Assembly (NCBI GenBank): GCA_029717555.1
Contig: JAMDHS010000100.1
Location: 51,024-71,023 of the forward strand
Origin: Peribolospora baueri
Taxonomy: Eukaryota
Direction of reading: 5' to 3'
DNA: 20,000 nucleotides
Position 1 is the stretch's first letter, and the number at the start of each line of letters is the position of its first letter. Shown one piece after another: positions 10,521 through 20,000 of the stretch. Under the pieces are notes generated by a model. The model ran no database searches. It saw nothing but the letters and a program-made list of their open reading frames with translations, and was not told the origin of the DNA. Both the position numbers and the translations under genes were made by a program.

Positions 10521-11625
10521 TCAAGCTTCGGAGCCACTCGCGCCACCTAAGAAATATCGTGTGCATGTCCATCTGCTCTTCTCGCCTCCTTCCACCATCT
10601 TGGCCGCCGACCGAATTGAGCCCTTGGCCAGTCTCTCGGCCCTCCTCTTCTCGAACAGCGCCCTGTACTTGTCGTATCCTTCCCTGAACGACTTGTCGAC
10701 GCGCCCTGAAAAGATGATCTCGCCCCTGGGGTTCGAGCTCGGCGGAGGGGGGGCGAGCGGTGCTCGTCGCGTGCCTGTTGGTGAGGAGCCTCGCGAGGAG
10801 GAGGGGTCCGACTGGGCTGGCGAGCGAGGCGGTGAAGCTGCGAGAGGCGACTGAGGTTGCGCAGAACGCGGATAGAAAAAGTGCCACAGTCGGGAGAGTC
10901 GAGAGGGTGGAGGGAGGACGCGAGTGTTGAGATGCATGTTGAACGGCCGTAATGCTCGATTGGCCTGGGGGACAAACCTGGAGCCCAACGAACAGGACGG
11001 AAGGTGAATCGGAGCGTCTTCCTCCGACGATGCATCGGGCTACTCACTTGTTTGCATAGACGACGCGTTCCGAGTACATGCCACTTGCAAAGAAGAGGAG
11101 CAAGCTGGTGACGCAGACGAGCAAGAGGCCAAGGTCGAGGTATTGCAAGTAGATGTACTTGGGTTAGATTGGATTGGGAAGGAGGTGGGTGTCATACATT
11201 GTCAGCGGCTATCTTCATATGGCGTTAGAGGGAGAAACTCACTTGGCTCCTGGCCATCAGCACCTTCCACGCAAACCAGACGATCGCAGCGCAAAGGCCC
11301 GCCAGGAAGACTTGGGAGTGGCGAGAAGAACCAACGAAAGAGAGAAGGGAACGAGATAGGAGAGATGACGGAAGGAATATCAGAAACGTCAGCTCGAGTC
11401 GAACCCCTCCAGAAAGACGCCGAGGAATATGGCGCAGGGAGCCCCAGACTTACGCTCATACTTCCTCTTCCTCTTCTGCAGCCTCTGGGCATTCTGCTTG
11501 AGCCGCTCCTCGAAGATGAGCAAGTCCCGGTATGTCTGCTGGTCCGCTGGGGGAGAGAAGGATTCTCCGGAAGAGGAGGAGCGATGGGAGAAGGGCGAGT
11601 GACCTCGCTTGGAACGAGGCGGCAT
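10521..11625 (-). CDS. SPO7: Spo7, regulatory subunit of the Nem1-Spo7 phosphatase (4 exons)
   Basis: Exons 11625-11454, 11310-11243, 11157-11048, 10977-10521. Signature TYRDLLIFEERLKQNAQRLQKRKRKYE, two hydrophobic segments, LFFASGMYSERVVYANKFVPQANRALRPFNM and FREGYDKYR. Confidence 0.92.
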
Positions 11626-11731: not shown

Positions 11732-11780
11732 CCGAGCCGCTGTCCGCACCCGCCGATCACGCCAAATACGCGGCGGCTAT

Positions 11781-11874
11781 GACGGACGACGGGCGACGGC
11801 GACAACAACAACAAGGACGACGACGACGGCGACGACGACGACCACGGCCACGACTACGACCACGACCGGCCGAC
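11781..11874 (+). repeat. Degenerate (GAC/CGA)n and (CAA)n trinucleotide microsatellite
   Basis: gacggacgacgggcgacggcgacaacaacaacaaggacgacgacgacggcgacgacgacgaccacggccacgactacgaccacgac. Confidence 0.85.
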
Positions 11875-11928
11875 AGATGCCTTCCCTCTTCCCGCCTTCC
11901 TAGTCAGGGCCCCTTCTTCGACGCCAGC

Positions 11929-14900
11929 ATGGAGCGCTGGTCCACTCTCGTGCCCACCAAGCTCCATGGCTCGAGTCTGCACAAACCAACCGCCGTCTCC
12001 TCGGTCGACAATTCGTACGAAGCCATCGGCCAACTGCCTCTCGCCGTCGTCCTCCGCATCCTCCAGTACACGTCCATACCCGACCTCCCCAACGTAGCCC
12101 GATGTTGCAGGCGCTTGGCCGCCTTTGTTAAAGATGAACGTTTGTGGGCATTCAAGCTTGCCGTACTCGACTGGGCCGAGGACGAGACAGACCGAGGTGC
12201 TGCAGGGCGGGGACAGGCGCAGACGGCAGGCCCTCCAGGGCCGGCTGAACGCTTCTCTCTGTCGTCTCCGAAGAGAGCGATCAAGCCTCCATTACTGGCG
12301 GCAGCGACGGACGATGACTTTGGCGTCTTTACCGCTGGCCGCACATCTGGCGCGAGCGGTGTTGAAAGGGAGGAGGAGGACGATTTTGGGGATTTCACTG
12401 GCAGTGCCGACCGTCCCCCATCGTCGACAGCGGCGAATACGGGAAACTTGCTCTCTTTTGACGACGTCGATGGCCTCGACTCTCTCGCTCCCATCACTTC
12501 AGCGACCGTCGCTGCGCCAGTCTCCCATCCCTCTCGTCCGCCAACCAATGGTTCGGCCGCACCCGGCGGCCTCCCCCGCTCATCACTCTACGTCTTCCGC
12601 TCCCACCATGCTGCCCTCCTTCCCACACTGTTGTCCCTCCGAACATCCCCCCCCTCTGCCCTTCTCTCGCATCCTAGCGCACCCAAAGAGTCGACTCTGA
12701 TAGATCAAGCCGCTTTCCTCAGCCGACTCGCGCGGTTCATTCACCCTCTATTGGAGCCGACCCGTGATATCAGAGGCGTAAATGGTCTCGAGGCTAGGCT
12801 GGCCGAGGGCATGGACTACTTCGAGGGAATGTGCCTCGCCACATTCGAAAGCGCCGACGAGCGCTTCTCCGCATCCTCGCAACAATCCGCCTCTTCGACG
12901 ACGCACGGGAGCGAGGAGACGATGAGGACGGCCGCATATGCGCTTTGGGAGCTGGGAAGGCCCTCGACGGCGGTGTGTAATGAAGAAGAGGAGATTGTCA
13001 GACGAATGCAGAGGATGGAAGGCGCTGTTGGCGTGTGGTTGGAGCGGAGGGAGATTTGGTACGAGAAAGGGTGGGACCCTCTAGCAAATGTCGTGTGAGT
13101 GCCATTCCATGCCTTGGTGCAGCGGCTCGTCTTGTGGCCCTCGTCGAGACTTGCACTGCTGATCGTATAGCTCATATTCTTGTCTTTGCACGCTCGTTCT
13201 CTAGGAAGGTTTCTGGAGCGGCCCCACAGCAAGGAGCTACCCTCGAAACGCTCGACTTTGCACCAATGGATCGTTTCATGTCAGCGGTGTTGTCCGCCGT
13301 TTCTGCGCAGGGCGGCATTATCAACCGGGTCTTTCCGACCCAAGCGGATGTTTTGGTCACGTTCGGGGAGCGGATAGCAAACGAAGTGGTACGTATCATA
13401 CCGGACACCACTTCGTGCATGTCCTCTTACGCTGCCTCACTTCGTCTCATGTCCATGCAGATCGGCGACTACGTATCGAGTTTGCTCTCCCACACGCGTT
13501 CTCTTTCCACTCGACTATACCTGCAATGTGTGGCGGCTGTCTTCGTCCAGTCCCTCCGTCTTGCCGACGCATTGCTATCAGTCGAGCCCAAGACCGAGCG
13601 CTTGACAAAGACCAAGGCCGAGGACATCGTGTACCGAATGTTCGAGCCGTACATGGACGAGTATCTGGGAGAGGAGAGGGAGTTGGTGAAGGAGCGATGC
13701 GAGGATGTGGTTACGCGCTGGGACGAGGAGGTGAGTGGTTCTCTTTGCCTCGCTTAGTCGGCCACCTGACCCTCGTCACAGCGTCTCATCGAAGCATCCA
13801 TGACCGTTATCATTATGCGTCCAGTTTGAGCATTCAACAGCTCCGACCGCTGCGCACTTCCTCACATCAGAGAACCCCACCGCGGTGAAGCGCAACGTCC
13901 TCCACTCCTTTCGCGATGCCCTTCTCCTACCCGTTACCGTGGTCCCCCGCACAGTTACCTATGCAGTCAAGTCGACGGCCGACACGATCAGCTCTCTCAA
14001 CCCGGTGCGTTGGCCGACGTCGTTGGCCGCGGAAGCCGTGCCGCCTACGTATGAGCGGGGTGGAGGAGAGGGCCGGGCCCTTGGGCGCGGGAGCATACTG
14101 GATGAGCTCGAGGAGGTCAACGTGACCGGCAAGCCGTCTCAGCCTTCCTCTGAGCGTGACAGTGCTCCGTCAGCTTCGTCCTCTCGGCCGTCAACCCCTT
14201 CGGTAGCATCTTTGAGCGTCCAACCCGCCAAAAGGTTCTCCACGCTCTCCGCTACTACGACGGCCACGACGCGAGCCAGTGCCAAGTCTACCTTCGAAGG
14301 ATTACAGCTATTTCTCAGCCTTGACGTCGCATTGCAGCTCATTCAGATCGACCGGGATTGCATAAAACGGATTGAGACGTTCCAGGGATATCCGGCCGCA
14401 TATGGCCACCGGGTGAGGGAGGAGATCGAGGAAGTTTTCATTGCCTTTCTACAAGTTCTTGGCGACAAACACATCGGGCCGGGCTTCACAAAGCGAGTAG
14501 CTTTCGTCGGTTTACGGTTGCGAGTTCTCGATTAGTCCATCTGACCTTGAGATCAAAATCTAACCAACAGAGCGACGCAAAAGATCGCCGCCTATGTTCC
14601 CGCCGAGCACGATCCCGTTACACCACGGCCGTCACAGGCCGAAATTGAGCACGCCGAAAGTGGCGACACAAAGCGACACGAGACCGTCGTGGCTCCCCTT
14701 GTGCACTTCTTTGAGCTCGTGCACATCGGAGACACTATCCAACAGATGGTACAGGTTTATTTCGATGAGGAAATGGTGAGTGCTCCGTTCCTCATTGCGG
14801 GCTTGCCTTTTCAGCTAACTGGGGTTTTTCATTAGGCCAAGCACATCGACCGCACCGACTTTCTCAACTCTGCGGTCCGAGAGAAGAAGCGCTTTGAGTC

Positions 14901-15738
14901 GATGCTAGATGAGGCCGTAGCCAAAGGTCTCAACGCCGGCGTCGACCTCCTCATGGGTCAGGCGGAGCACATTATCTCTACGAGGCAAGATCCGAGGGAT
15001 TTCTATCCAGAACAAGGCCAAAGCTTGGACCTGCGTCCGACGCGCGCGTGTAGAGACACAGTGGAGTGCCTCAAAGCCCACTGTCGTATGCTCGTCGGAA
15101 GCACGGACCGACAAGTACTAGAGGTGTTCTATCAGGAGGTCGGCATACGCTTGCACGGGTGAGGCAGGCGACTCTCTCTGATCTTGTATTTGCTCGTATT
15201 TGCTCTGGCGATTAAACTTAGGTTACAATTCTTCGCCTCATAGCATCATCTGCAAACACCTCAAACGCCAAATAATTTCCCTCGACGGCGGTTTTCAGGT
15301 CATCTCCGACCTCAACTACTACTATGCCTTTGTCGCCTCCTTGCGACAATCCAACATCACTGCCTACTTCGAGGCACTCAAAAAACTCGGAAACGTGTTC
15401 ATCATTGATTCGGCCAAAGACCTCGGACAGGTGGTACGGGATGCAAGCATGTATGGTGGTATGTTCAGTCCAGAAGAGGTGTATGAGTTTCTACGAGTGA
15501 GTCGACCAGGTCTTCCGTCGTGGTTTCGCGTGCGCGACTGATGCGACTCCGACTCTTGGAACAACTTGGCGGGCAGGCCCGTTGCGACTTTAAGGCTATC
15601 GAGAAGGCGGTCGACAAAGAAATGTGAGTGTGACGAAGGGAACGAGGTCAGGGTCCCCAAAGGTGTGCGTCAGTCGGCTCAAAGCTTCGACCATGCAGGT
15701 ACGGCTTCAAAGCCTCGGAGGACTGCATCGTATGCTAG
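11929..15738 (+). CDS. RCY1: Recyclin-1: F-box plus Sec10-like domain protein with C-terminal CaaX box (9 exons)
   Basis: Exons 11929-13094, 13205-13388, 13461-13730, 13825-14492, 14571-14775, 14836-15158, 15244-15496, 15577-15623, 15699-15738. F-box LPLAVVLRILQYTSIPDLPNVARCCRRL; Sec10-like motifs FEPYMDEYL, FFELVHIGDTIQQM, EKKRFESMLDEAVAKGLNAG and GGFQVISDLNYY; ends DCIVC-stop (CaaX). Confidence 0.92.
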
Positions 15739-16661
15739 GAGTGCACTGTACTCTCGACCGCCAGCTTCCGAAAGGTGATTAATCATTATAGGCCGTGGTG
15801 GCGGCGGTGGATTGTGGAGGTTAGAGTTAGAAAGGCGGACCTATGAGCATGGATCGGGCAGGGCATGTACACATGTAGTTACCGCATACCTGGACGGCAA
15901 CGTCGGCCACAGCAAGCCTTCAGCTTATCTGTCGCAGAAGGAACGAGATCTCCCTGCTCTCCATGGCAGCCGTCAAATCGCACTCTTCCAAGACTGACTG
16001 GCGTGAAGCGATTCACTTGTCGTCCATGATTACGCTCCACTTTGCCCGGTCCCGACACGGGGAGGTAGGGACAATCAATAACAATATAGTGGCTTTAGCG
16101 AGTCCTGTCGTTGGGATGGGGAGCGATAGCAGCGACGGGGGAGGAGGAGGAGGAAGAGGAGATGGGAGACATGGACGCCACCGTTTTTCTTTTCCGGGGG
16201 CGCTGGCGATGGCGCGGACGGACGGACGAGTTGTTCATCTTACCGCAGCATCCACGTGCTTCCGTTGCCGCAGCCAGCCGCTGGTCGACGAGAGGGGGAA
16301 GCTAGCAGTGCGATTTTCATCACGCACACGATCGTCCGTTCGTCCACGATGATGACCCCTCCAACGCAGCGCGCGCCGCGACCCTCCTTTTGTTCTCGCC
16401 AAGGTTGGTCGCCGCTCGTCTGTCGCACTTAGTCTTCTCAGCCGGCCCATGCGCATGGCATAGCTTCAAAGGCAAGTAGGATCTGATGGCATTACATTCG
16501 GCTGGCATTTGACCGTCCTCTTGGTGTTCGACCATCCTCGCGCACACCCTCGCGCTCTGTCACCATCTCTCGTTAGCACCGGCCGGGAAAATCTTAAGAA
16601 AAACACAAGTTTGCTAACTGCGCATCATATGCGCCGAGCCTCCTTTCATAAACTGATACGA

Positions 16662-16829
16662 TCATACGCCCTCCGTGAGACCGGCACGAGTTTGCAGAGC
16701 GTTTTACAGGTCGCTGACGTGCTTGGACCGATTGGGATATGTCAGGTTGACCGCCTGCCGCAGGCTCGAGATAGAGGCCTCGAGGTCGTCCAGATCGCCG
16801 AGGCACTGATATCGCGTGTCCAGCTGTGA
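16662..16829 (-). pseudogene. Relic fragment (~1.3 units) of a fungal TPR repeat of the type found in TPR-CHAT proteins
   Basis: A minus frame absent from the ORF track reads SQLDTRYQCLGDLDDLEASISSLRQAVNLTYPNRSKHVSDL*NALQTRAGLTEGV*. This matches the repeat consensus as I recall it (R...G.L.DLE.AI...RQAV.LTP..HP.R...L.NLGNAL..R), with an in-frame TAA at 16704-16706 and a short deletion. Confidence 0.7.
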
Positions 16830-17151
16830 TGTGACCGGCCACTGTGTGACGGTTTTGCACTCATTCAGCTAGTTGGCACCATTACATGGCGACACCAGCA
16901 GGGTTCTCGGACTCCCTTTGTGCTTTATAACCTCGTAAAGGCACCACTCTGTTACCCGCCATAGTGACGGAGACTGAGCTCCGCTAGGCGGCCGCCCTTA
17001 CCGTTCACCGGGACGAAAGAGGTCACCAGAGCCCCGTTTCCCCCGAATACACGAGCCAGCTTCTCGTGACGAACTACGACGACCAGTAACGATCCAGCCA
17101 CGAACTGTGACGACCGAACCACAAAGCAGCCGAGCGTTCATAGCGACGTTG

Positions 17152-17192
17152 TTTTTTCTTTGTTTTTCTTTTTCTTTTTCTTTTTAATTTTT
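17152..17192. repeat. T-rich tract (A-rich on the minus strand)
   Basis: ttttttctttgtttttcttttctttttctttttaattttt. Confidence 0.8.
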
Positions 17193-17317
17193 CGATGTTG
17201 GCTCCTCAAACAAGATCTACCCGTAAGAGGCCCGCGAGTTCACCGAGTGACCTCTCGAACCACTCGGAGATGGAGACTCCCGCTCCTCACTAGTCTCACT
17301 GTGCTCCCTACGAAGGT

Positions 17318-17324
17318 ATATAAA
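17318..17324 (+). promoter_or_regulatory. TATA box followed by a long CT-rich leader
   Basis: gTATATAAAgg, then a pyrimidine-rich stretch ~17333-17500, the usual layout of a fungal core promoter. Confidence 0.55.
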
Positions 17325-17596
17325 GGGCTCGCATTCTCCTCTCAGCTGTAGTTAAATCCCTCATTCGTGAATTCCTTCCCCGATCCTTATCCCCATCCTC
17401 GAATCCTTTCCCTCTCTACCCAACCCCGATCCTGATCTCCTTTAGCTTCCCTATCTCATTCTCATCTTGACTCTTACCTCGTTCCCATCTGGACCTCGTT
17501 CCCATGAGGACCGACCCGATCCAACCTGCTCAAAAGCCTTCGCATTTCTCTCCGAGCACACTTCCAGGGCCTCAAATACAAGGTTGGCACCCTGAT

Positions 17597-17647
17597 GGCT
17601 GCCTGACGGGCCCTCGGGCGAAACAGCAAAAGCTTTCTGTCGCAGCT
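17597..17647 (+). ncRNA. Type I hammerhead ribozyme (A9G core variant)
   Basis: Stem I 5' GGCUGC (17597-17602); core CUGACGG (17603-17609); stem II GCC-CUCG-GGC (17610-17619); GAAA (17620-17623); stem III CAG-CAAAAGCUUU-CUG; UC with predicted cleavage after C17641 (GUC triplet); stem I 3' GCAGCU (17642-17647). Confidence 0.8.
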
Positions 17648-17693
17648 TGCTCTTTCTTCTCGTGGGGCTTCGTTTTTTGTCCACAGCAACTTC

Positions 17694-17781
17694 ATGGCCA
17701 CCTCCAGTTGACGACAAAAATCTTAACCCTCGATAAAAGCCGACCTCCGGCTCTCTCCCACCCCTTCGGCGCCCAATGACC

Positions 17782-17817
<36 letters not shown>

Positions 17818-18272
17818 CCGTCCAACGCCATAATAAGCGTCTCGCAGTCGACCCCCTAGGGGAGGAAGACCTGGTGAACAGCCTAGCTGTATCCCACTTA
17901 GAGACACCCCCCTCTTTCCTTGAAATCTACAAGGAGCACGTTGCTGCCTACACCAGCAACGTGTCGAGGGTCCTTCGCGCACAGGCTGGCATCGCCGAGC
18001 TGGAAACAGCGAAAGCCACCGGGGTTTATCCTCCAGCGATCGCCAACGCAGTCAAACTGCCTCCTATCCAAGTTTCAGGCTTTGCTCGACCCCATATCAG
18101 GGAAGACATTGCCTCTGAAAGCTCTGATATGGAGATAGCGGCCCACGCATGCCGAACTACTTTTCTGGATAAACTCATTTGGGTCAGGCGAAAGGAGGTC
18201 GAGCTCCTCACCTGTCTACAAACGGAGGAGAAAGTCGTACAGCAGCCTCCCCTGGATAGATCTCTTGTTTGA
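17694..18272 (+). pseudogene. Disrupted ORF downstream of the hammerhead; probable N-terminal part of a Penelope-like retroelement ORF
   Basis: ATG 17694 is in frame with ORF 17874-18272. Stops occur at 17709 (TGA) and 17721 (TAA); the frame is then open through the poly(C) (poly-Pro) into ELETAKATGVYPPAIANAVKLPPIQVS...FLDKLIWVRRKEVELL. No RT motifs are visible. The family call is inferred from the hammerhead context and recalled similarity. Confidence 0.5.
17783..17815 (+). repeat. Poly(C) homopolymer, 33 nt (poly-G on the minus strand)
   Basis: Direct count of consecutive C residues. Confidence 0.95.
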
Positions 18273-18750
18273 CGCGTTGAAGAAGTCACCGAGGCTACGC
18301 GTCTGTCAGGGAGGACTTCCCTACTCAGGTCGGGTCACGAGCGAGGGACGGAGGGCGGAATGGAGGTCCACCGGAAGTCGACGCAAAGCAAGGAGCAGGC
18401 AAGTCGGGGACAAGGACGAGCACAGGAACGAGGATGGGGCGGAGGCTGGGACGGAGGTACTGATGCTGGACGGGGAACTCTGGAGGAAACCTGAGCGGTG
18501 ACAAAAGTATTCTTAGCTTGGGGAGGAAAGATGCGGACGACACACACACACACATGCGAAGAGCTCGATCACCCACCGTTGAAAGCCAACATTTTAAGGA
18601 GGCACTTTGAATGCATATAAAGTACATAGATTGGTAGAGGAATAATAGAAGACCATGAAAGCGAAATCCGAAGCAAAAGCAAGAGAGAAAAAGCAGAGTT
18701 ATAAGCGTTTGAAGTTTGGGCGGATAAATTTTGTTTTTGTAATGGCTGCG

Positions 18751-19008
18751 TGTAACACGCGGATCGTTTCGGCACTGTGATGAACGTCCGCCGATTGACG
18801 TCGTGTACGAAGTAGGTCGACAAGGGCAAGGTTGCAAGGTCAAGGAAGATCAAGGCAACAAGGTATCAAGGTGAACAAGGCTAGGAACATGGACAAAGGG
18901 ACAAGGACGGGGAGCTAGAGCTAGGTACCAGAACACGGGAGCTAGGAACTATGGAGCACGCGGGTCTTGGACGGGCTTCAGGAGTGTGCGACGACGCGAC
19001 GCGTTACA
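18751..19008 (-). mobile_element. LTR-like element, 258 bp, termini TGTAAC...GTTACA
   Basis: Terminal inverted repeat TGTAACACG vs TGTAACGCG (8/9 match), TG...CA ends, and internal short repeats (CAAGG, GAGCTAG). A purine tract GAGGAGGG lies just upstream on the minus strand. The flanks (CTGCG / GACGC) are not a target-site duplication. Confidence 0.6.
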
Positions 19009-19022
19009 GACGCGCACCCTCC

Positions 19023-20000
19023 TCAGGACCGGTTAGGGAGATGCCCAATACGCTGCACCGCTTGGTCGTAAATTTTTTGAGCCTCTTCGTCGGTGAGCAG
19101 TCGTGACGGCAGCGCCCATGTCAGCGCCATCGCAGCCTCCATCTCGGGGCACCTCGGCATTCTTTCCGCCAACATCCTGACCCAATCCGGCGGCCCGTCG
19201 CCCACAGTAGTGATCAGTTTACAGCGCTCCCACCAAGCAGGCAGGAACCCGCTAGTTTCCCAGTCCAGGATGCAAGAAATCGATTTGGACTCCTGGTCGA
19301 ACTGAATGTTGTACGGCCCGAGATCGCCGTGCGTCATGACGAAGCGCGTACGATCCTCCGGGTTCTTGTCCAGATGCCTAGCGTGCAGCTCCCTCACAAC
19401 CGCAGCAGTAACCGCATCGACGCCGGCATAGACAATCATCTGGTTCAGAAGTTGATCCGCCTGATTGTCGCCAGTGAAGCGAAGAAATCGGCCTTGTTTT
19501 GTGAGGTACCCCTCTTGAAGCGGGCTGTCGTCGGGACTGCAGATCTTTCCTGACGTCAACTGCCTCACTTCGCGCAGATGCTTCCATGTTTCGTCGACAA
19601 CGGCCCTCTTGCATCTCTCGTCCATGGATATCCACGGGTTTGGGTCGATAAGCTTGACGCCCTCCACTATTCCACTCGGATAAAGCTTGACGCCCTTGGC
19701 CTGCTTCATCAGAATGAAATGTCTCTTGGCCTTGTCGCTGTGCCATCTCAGAAGGGTGTCTGGCACGGGAACAGACGTCTTCGCCTTGATGTACTCGATG
19801 ATCCCTTGCTCGGCGGGTGCCACCGTCCTTGAGGACGACCTGGCCATGGATTGAAATTACACACCGCGACGATGTACGATGGACGCACTCGACGTGGCCC
19901 GCGAGCGGGTCGTACGCGTCGAGCTCGCGGATGAACGCTCGACTCTCGGCCGGGTCTTTTGGGAAGAGATCCAAGATGGACGGATCCGGGCCAGAGATGG
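19023..20000 (-). pseudogene. Intronless APH/choline-kinase-like phosphotransferase, frameshifted near 19812-19830; 5' end outside the window
   Basis: ORF 19847-19023 carries E..IEYIKAKTSVPVP, FILM, FVMTHGDLGPYNI (Brenner motif) and ILDWETSGFLPAWWE. The N-lobe strand RCVISIHGQVVLKDG is in a different frame, which stays open to the window edge. No room for an intron between the two frames. Confidence 0.8.

Follow-up and report, generated by a model that had tools for sequence, protein, structure and literature searches.

The window, i.e. the whole stretch of 20,000 nucleotides that was analysed, is fungal nuclear DNA, in which Pfam searches found the families Fungal_trans, cobW, XPG_I_2, Spo7, F-box plus Sec10 (Rcy1-like) and APH. 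An intron-split F-box and Sec10-like gene for an Rcy1-type recycling protein (11779-14535, + strand) and a Spo7-like ORF (10524-11039, - strand) are ordinary fungal housekeeping neighbours of the locus discussed here. Further to the right lies a TATATAAAG box with a CT-rich tract behind it, probably the promoter of a transcript that runs rightwards and the leader of which would hold a compact hammerhead-shaped motif (Table 1). The leader would end at an ATG, behind which a run of 33 C is followed by an open frame that is one base out of register with this start codon. Other copies of the repeat family described below retain the ATG context, and they show mixed letters at the position of the C run. 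The run could be an effect of assembly or length variation, or it could be a phase-variable switch. The 151-codon frame belongs to no Pfam family and has no detectable relatives in homology searches; a single borderline match (P0001, E 9.7e-4 among 1.84 billion), which itself shows no more than a YmzC-like match, was uninformative and was discarded. We also rejected the reading of 17767-17776 as primer-binding site of an LTR element, because the segment does not start with TGG and there is no LTR.

Table 1. Features of the hammerhead-shaped motif and of the surrounding locus (positions within the window).
Feature	Position	Strand	Basis or remark
TATATAAAG box, then CT-rich tract	17317-17325	+	1 match vs 0.01 expected
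Second repeated segment	17506-17592	+	approximately 2.5 copies in X1, 6-8 in X3/X4
Type I hammerhead-shaped motif (stem I open, stems II and III capped)	17597-17647	+	sequence reading, descriptor, own covariance models
Stem I, GGCUGC / GCAGCU, 6 bp, outer pair G-U	17597-17602 / 17642-17647	+	
Core strand CUGACGG (C3 U4 G5 A6 C7 G8 and G9)	17603-17609	+	
Stem II hairpin GCC-CUCG-GGC with G10.1-C11.1 pair	17610-17619	+	sequence, covariance model alignment
GAAA	17620-17623	+	
Stem III CAG/CUG with A15.1-U16.1 and 10-nt loop CAAAAGCUUU	17624-17640	+	
C17, putative cut on its 3' side	17641	+	
Competing helix, GACGG (17605-17609) with CUGUC (17637-17641)	17605-17641	+	MFE fold
Invariant multi-copy core	17598-17660	+	87-nt contig, X1 depth 584 vs 114 for single copy, i.e. 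approximately 5 copies
Less conserved repeat continuation	17662-17767	+	variants at 17662, 17665 (two alleles), 17672/17673 (indels), 17681, 17700
ATG (17776), C33 run (17783-17815) and 151-codon open frame	17776-18272	+	

The motif was first described in a sequence-only reading as a self-cleaving type I hammerhead ribozyme, and all its letters, which we re-read on the + strand, agree with that description. Its stems comprise 6, 3 and 3+1 bp, and the order of the helices together with the G10.1-C11.1 pair is that of type I hammerheads. The GUC cleavage-site triplet is likewise present as described, and the sole departure from the core is indeed a G in place of A9 at position 17609, i.e. 12 of the 13 core positions counted in the original reading are kept. 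Measured against the full conserved type I core (C3 U4 G5 A6 G8 A9 G12 A13 A14 A15.1 U16.1 H17) the candidate is thus incomplete. To our knowledge, position 9 is an A in all hammerheads, and we know of no natural hammerhead with G9. The palindrome AAAGCUUU in the loop of stem III was also confirmed, and two bases, CA, separate the arm from a perfect palindrome of 16 nt. Two such stem III arms are predicted to pair with each other via the palindrome at -12.5 kcal/mol, with two 2-nt bulges in the duplex; the dimer predicted for the whole 51-mer is no double hammerhead.

How surprising such a motif is depends on what is counted. We used our own type I descriptor, which permits at most one core mismatch, requires stems of at least 4-6/3/3 bp and accepts hairpins of up to 36 nt, and in both strands of the 20 kb the candidate is the only site. 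In 705 Mb of random first-order Markov sequence with the composition of the window, this loose descriptor found 41, 95 and 275 sites when stem I had to comprise at least 6, 5 and 4 bp, respectively. With at least 6 bp, the chance rate corresponds to 2.3e-3 per 20-kb window or approximately 3 sites per genome of 25 Mb. With a perfect core, the same 705 Mb gave 2, 3 and 6 sites at these three lengths of stem I, and with hairpins capped at the lengths found in the candidate 0, 1 and 7. Hence, the motif is little surprising as any hammerhead-like shape and truly surprising if its compactness counts.

The candidate received no support from the curated covariance models, the search with which had been proposed as a test of the claim. 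With the five hammerhead families of Rfam 15 the window gave no match at gathering, and stretches of 351 nt and 69 nt around the motif gave no match to a hammerhead family at E<=10; the only rows at this threshold, RMST_10 (16.5 bits) and snoR118 (9.3 bits), are at chance level. As positive control we collected viral contigs that fit the textbook type I consensus, which comprise at least 124 loci. Of these listed phage loci, none of 20 passed the Rfam gathering threshold, and in E-value mode 4 of 4 matched a hammerhead family, with Hammerhead_1 scores of 22.7-30.2 bits vs a gathering threshold of 34. These controls indicate that Rfam does detect type I hammerheads but that the curated model is narrow, and the candidate lies more than 13 bits below the real hammerheads in the same search. 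On several of the phage contigs (L059:55-747, L042:55-864 with its duplicate L101, L013/L054 and L113), two to three type I hammerheads are spaced by a few hundred bases. Such clusters are already known from phages, and the curated Rfam type I model under-calls them.

We also report scores from two covariance models of our own. The first one, R1, was trained on an alignment (A1) of 14 phage hammerheads of equal length and gave 84 matches of 17.4-73.2 bits in a search of 100 of the 124 loci listed. The alignment of these 84 matches (A2) served to build the second model, R2. In A2, 97.4% of the cells are paired, 12 of the 15 pairs show changes on both sides, and the covariation score amounts to 0.827, which none of 500 shuffles reached, compared to 0.163 after shuffling. 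Pairing and covariation thus mark the phage training set as genuine. When the whole window was searched with filters switched off, the candidate came out on top with both models, with 20.9 bits and E 2e-5 for R1 (runner-up 8.1 bits) and 27.5 bits and E 3.1e-7 for R2 (runner-up 8.2 bits), and both models aligned it end to end with the boundaries originally given. It must be mentioned that these E-values are rough owing to a short calibration, and that the pattern used to fetch the loci fixed G10.1, C11.1, C15.2, G16.2 and C17, so that the models reward exactly those letters. Scaled up with the same rough calibration, the R2 value becomes approximately 4e-4 per 25 Mb and approximately 0.1 per 250,000 windows. 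Over this number of windows the expectation accordingly ranges from approximately 0.1 with the covariance model estimate to hundreds with the loose descriptor. Hence, the motif is unexpected within one genome, but not clearly so across approximately 250,000 windows. Among 24 loci outside A2, R2 gave 39.2-67.4 bits to 13 well-formed hammerheads and at most 26.5 bits to loci that have only the core, and the candidate falls between the two groups; some of these held-out loci duplicate training loci, and one of them, L121, was part of A1. Altogether, the hammerhead shape is genuine, and judged by a model of natural type I hammerheads it stands out statistically.

The predicted folding of the RNA is less favourable. 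The 51-mer has an MFE of -20.1 kcal/mol with a z-score of -1.4, and 19 of 200 shuffled sequences fold as well; within a context of 131 nt the z-score is 0.0. The hammerhead fold, at -13.5 kcal/mol, lies 6.6 kcal/mol above this value, and with its helices enforced it makes up approximately 1e-4 of the ensemble of the 51-mer. In contexts of 131 nt and 281 nt the penalty is approximately 9 kcal/mol. In the MFE fold, the competing helix (Table 1) buries core positions 5-9 as well as the cleavage site, i.e. the 3' strand of stem III, U16.1 and C17, and G9 and C7 each contribute one pair to it. Natural motifs behave differently. The 124 phage loci listed hold 88 perfect-core type I motifs, for 83 of which the gap to the MFE is at most 2 kcal/mol (median 0), and the three with a gap of at least 6.6 kcal/mol are long-looped ones, which the simple structure used may underrate. 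Random sequence (935 Mb) supplied 29 chance motifs, of which 25 show a gap of at least 6.6 kcal/mol (median 12.2) and one lies within 2 kcal/mol. By these energy calculations, most chance motifs would fold worse than the candidate, and nearly all real hammerheads would fold better.

Further copies were sought in four public DNA runs (X1-X4) from two organisms, the contigs of which were placed on 16900-17775 at 80% likeness; a search of public runs listed no RNA run with the locus. The search that had been proposed for homologous copies was successful, since approximately 5 were found in X1/X2, a relative with a nearly identical genome, and one in X3/X4, all of them with the three stems kept. 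Over 16900-17535, X1 has a single-copy contig (depth 114) that is identical to the window, and the depth of the run climbs from 17506 on. For X2, arithmetic on the depth table gives a copy number similar to that of X1. Summing the depths gives values of up to 1850, which exaggerate the copy number because adjacent contigs overlap by 30 letters. In the second organism (X3/X4), the segment 17598-17718 is found once, on a single-copy contig of 1933 nt, with five other letters and one gap, all at or beyond 17662. Hence, its copy shows no difference over 64 nt and five substitutions plus one indel in the next 57 nt (approximately 10%). Over 17598-17661, no difference is listed in any of the four runs; the 87-nt contig of X1 has one unlisted other letter, probably at the contig end. 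Two further points had been named for checking in the first description. An A at position 9 was found in none of the copies at 80% likeness or more in the four runs, every one of them having G9, and the absence of covariation speaks neither for nor against the helices, because the copies do not vary over 17598-17661. By sequence comparison the motif belongs to a small dispersed repeat family, and the homology of the other copies reaches the ATG.

The upstream border of this block is less regular. The second repeated segment (17506-17592) runs into different sequence in other copies, and the depth in the bin 17590-17619 is wholly explained by contigs that end at 17592 or start at 17598. No contig of X1 covers 17593-17597 and none of the four runs bridges the join between 17592 and 17598, which suggests that this join is private to the window or absent from those strains. 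At this junction, the copy in the window may have suffered a deletion compared with the rest of the family; a collapsed assembly is the alternative. G17597, one half of the outer pair of stem I, lies outside of the family core, and the first 24 letters of the 87-nt contig differ from the upstream sequence of the window. A drawing made by hand indicates that, in the other copies, the 24 nt directly upstream of 17598 have a purine-rich end that could pair over 10 bp (7 Watson-Crick, 3 G-U) with 17649-17658, separated by an internal loop of 8 x 2 nt from a stem I of 5 bp. One difference between the organisms, A to G, falls into the drawn helix and keeps the pair. Drawn in this way, the invariant 87-nt contig would nearly coincide with a self-closed three-way junction, and the extended helix would suit the interrupted stem I of a type I hammerhead and a long imperfect competing hairpin equally. 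Upstream of the block, the segments 16933-16984 and 17199-17282 are also multi-copy or have diverged relatives (depth approximately 2.6x; a 497-nt contig of 90% identity), and the repeat family may span approximately 850 nt including the TATA box. A T-rich, TTTTTC-like microsatellite occupies 17150-17195, where the contigs of the public runs seem to be cut. Scans with exact and degenerate motif patterns gave no match in viral contigs and none in metagenome contigs.

The original proposal that the motif is part of a retroelement RNA found no support in the window. Among 47 stop-to-stop ORFs of at least 120 aa there is no RT, no GIY-YIG or other endonuclease, no integrase and no transposase. Direct repeats of more than 21 nt are absent from 14000-20000, self-comparison of the window gave no second copy of 17480-17780, and neither a pseudo-LTR nor a second hammerhead is present. 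Hence, the simplest reading places the motif in the leader of a small orphan gene family or mobile unit rather than in a recognisable retroelement.

The evidence is divided. Shape, copy number and conservation speak for a hammerhead, core identity, the curated models, folding and the retroelement context speak against it, and the score with our own models lies in the twilight between. We lean, with modest confidence, towards a look-alike that would lack efficient self-cleavage and lie inside a conserved structured leader block. The 51 nt would be a section of the conserved core of approximately 87 nt of the small dispersed family, with approximately five copies in the closest available genome, and in the window the family would form the leader between the TATA box (17317) and the orphan ORF (ATG at 17776). 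The RNA would most likely take the stabler fold, in which GACGG pairs with CUGUC and stem I is extended, resulting in a single long, imperfect hairpin on which the small GCC/GGC hairpin sits. The leader structure or repeat element may act on translation, stability or protein processing, and not by own catalysis.

Several findings favour the look-alike. Natural hammerhead cores match the consensus "almost without exception", according to PMC3088659, and the candidate has G for A9, as the only state in all copies of the four runs. We do not assign it to the hammerhead family, because this defining A was tested and is replaced. Furthermore, the Rfam models remain silent on it while they do respond to the type I hammerheads of phages, the hammerhead fold lies 6.6 kcal/mol, and in longer contexts 9 kcal/mol, above the MFE, and the R2 score is below those of all 13 well-formed held-out hammerheads. 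Moreover, an RT, endonuclease or transposase ORF, a flanking repeat and a second motif are missing in the window, and a cut in the leader would presumably strip the cap from the message of the downstream ORF. Nevertheless, there are arguments against this reading. The R2 score is far above the background of the window (27.5 vs 8.2 bits), the descriptor finds 0-1 chance sites in 705 Mb at the loop sizes of the candidate, and 25 of 29 chance motifs have a larger energy gap. Eukaryotic hammerheads also usually reside in multi-copy elements, as the motif does, the invariant stretch covers the motif while the next 57 nt vary, and the hand-drawn stem I of the other copies, long and interrupted, would be typical of natural type I hammerheads. 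Under the look-alike explanation, there would be no true ribozyme of the kind first described.

It is rather unlikely that the motif represents a disabled descendant of a true hammerhead, derived from a retroelement or mobile RNA-processing unit, in which G9 would have arisen before the copies spread and which would have been kept for other reasons or would simply be young. Decayed hammerheads are common where hammerhead-bearing repeats exist, and G9 and the misfold would suit a dead copy as well as the model statistics and the repeat context would suit its origin. However, an A9 copy was absent at 80% likeness or more in the four runs, the 20 kb contain no retroelement gene, and invariance next to a sequence that varies 1-40 nt downstream is not what one would expect of a dead relic.

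Quite unlikely, in our judgement, is an active and probably slow type I hammerhead with native G9 in a small repeat family, which, either on its own or as a dimer formed via AAAGCUUU, would cleave the leader transcript behind C17641. The 12 core positions, the G10.1-C11.1 pair, the GUC site and the three helices argue for it, as do the R2 score and E-value, the approximately 5 + 1 copies with an invariant motif and variable flanks, the predicted pairing of two arms at -12.5 kcal/mol and the extended interrupted stem I of the hand drawing for the other copies. The fungus Yarrowia is already described as having hammerheads in interspersed repeats (PMC3088659). On the other hand, the natural core variants given in the consulted part of the same source (U3-A8, A6C, insertions, U15.1-A16.1 and U10.1-U11.1) include no G9 and none at position 9, and core substitutions generally cost activity according to the mutational work cited there. 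Our literature search for a hammerhead with A9G returned nothing on the ribozyme core; the size of the A9G defect goes back to older mutational work. The competing fold is favoured by 6.6 kcal/mol, with a pair added by G9 itself, there is neither an Rfam match nor covariation, and the dimer predicted for the whole 51-mer is not a double hammerhead.

We give very little credit to the reading that recent duplication or gene conversion alone spread a functionless block with a hammerhead shape by pure chance, for which the approximately 3 motifs per 25-Mb genome and hundreds in 250,000 windows expected with the loose descriptor and the mere handful of copies could be quoted, since the copies differ at 17662, 17665, 17672/3, 17681 and 17700 right after the invariant 64 nt and the second organism keeps the block letter for letter, and a variable flank beside an invariant block in two organisms argues for constraint over youth.

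The boldest version of the ribozyme claim would be a natural G9 hammerhead, conserved letter for letter in the repeats of a filamentous fungus approximately 130 nt before the start of an orphan ORF and cutting after C17641, which we regard as very unlikely. If G9 did permit cleavage, the downstream RNA would start uncapped with a 5'-OH. HDV-like ribozymes act likewise at the 5' ends of some non-LTR retrotransposons. Ribozymes of some RNA viruses are reported to work in this way, too (PMC13725137). It would also be the first tolerated natural substitution of A9, meaning that the most conserved part of the hammerhead accepts a G at this position, and a repeat family of a filamentous fungus with a role in leader processing would join the known homes of hammerheads as a novel fungal setting. 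If there is no cleavage, which we judge likelier, the locus would be a calibration case for hammerhead calling, i.e. 12 of 13 core positions, three helices, conserved copies and a strong home-made score, yet failure with curated models and in folding. The conserved 87-nt block would then still need an explanation of its own.

Compared to known systems, the candidate resembles each in part. With retrozymes it has in common that a hammerhead-like motif, apparently non-coding, occurs in several copies in a eukaryotic genome. Retrozymes have two direct repeats, each with a hammerhead, whereas the candidate is a single motif in 20 kb without flanking repeats; in the parts of the literature covered, retrozymes were not found described for fungi. 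Compact type I hammerheads with a palindromic stem III, which can cleave as dimers, are known from the pseudo-LTRs of Penelope-like elements (PLEs) and from retrozymes, and the dimeric PLE forms have very short stems. In PLEs, the hammerheads are situated in the pseudo-LTRs or beside terminal repeats, and in the EN-lacking Athena and Coprina clades they are combined with reverse-complement telomere repeats, as reported in PMC8557442. The candidate shares with PLE hammerheads, including those of the telomere-attached fungal Coprina elements, a type I motif in a repeat and a palindromic apex of stem III that could permit dimers to form. In contrast, the 20 kb hold no RT or GIY-YIG ORF and no tandem or pseudo-LTR layout, the candidate has the C33 run and no reverse-complement telomere repeats downstream, and its stem III of 4 bp with a 10-nt loop is unlike the dimeric PLE forms. 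The hammerheads of Yarrowia lipolytica, which occur in interspersed repeats (PMC3088659), have in common with the candidate a fungal genome and a multi-copy interspersed element; by their description they are set apart through a consensus core, from which the candidate deviates. From the type I hammerheads of RF00163 and the phage arrays it differs by G9, the missing Rfam match, the intermediate R2 score and a hammerhead fold that is not the MFE, and it shares with them the open stem I, the capped stems II and III, the compact size of 51 nt, C3 U4 G5 A6 N7 G8, G12 A13 A14, the A15.1-U16.1 and G10.1-C11.1 pairs and the GUC triplet.
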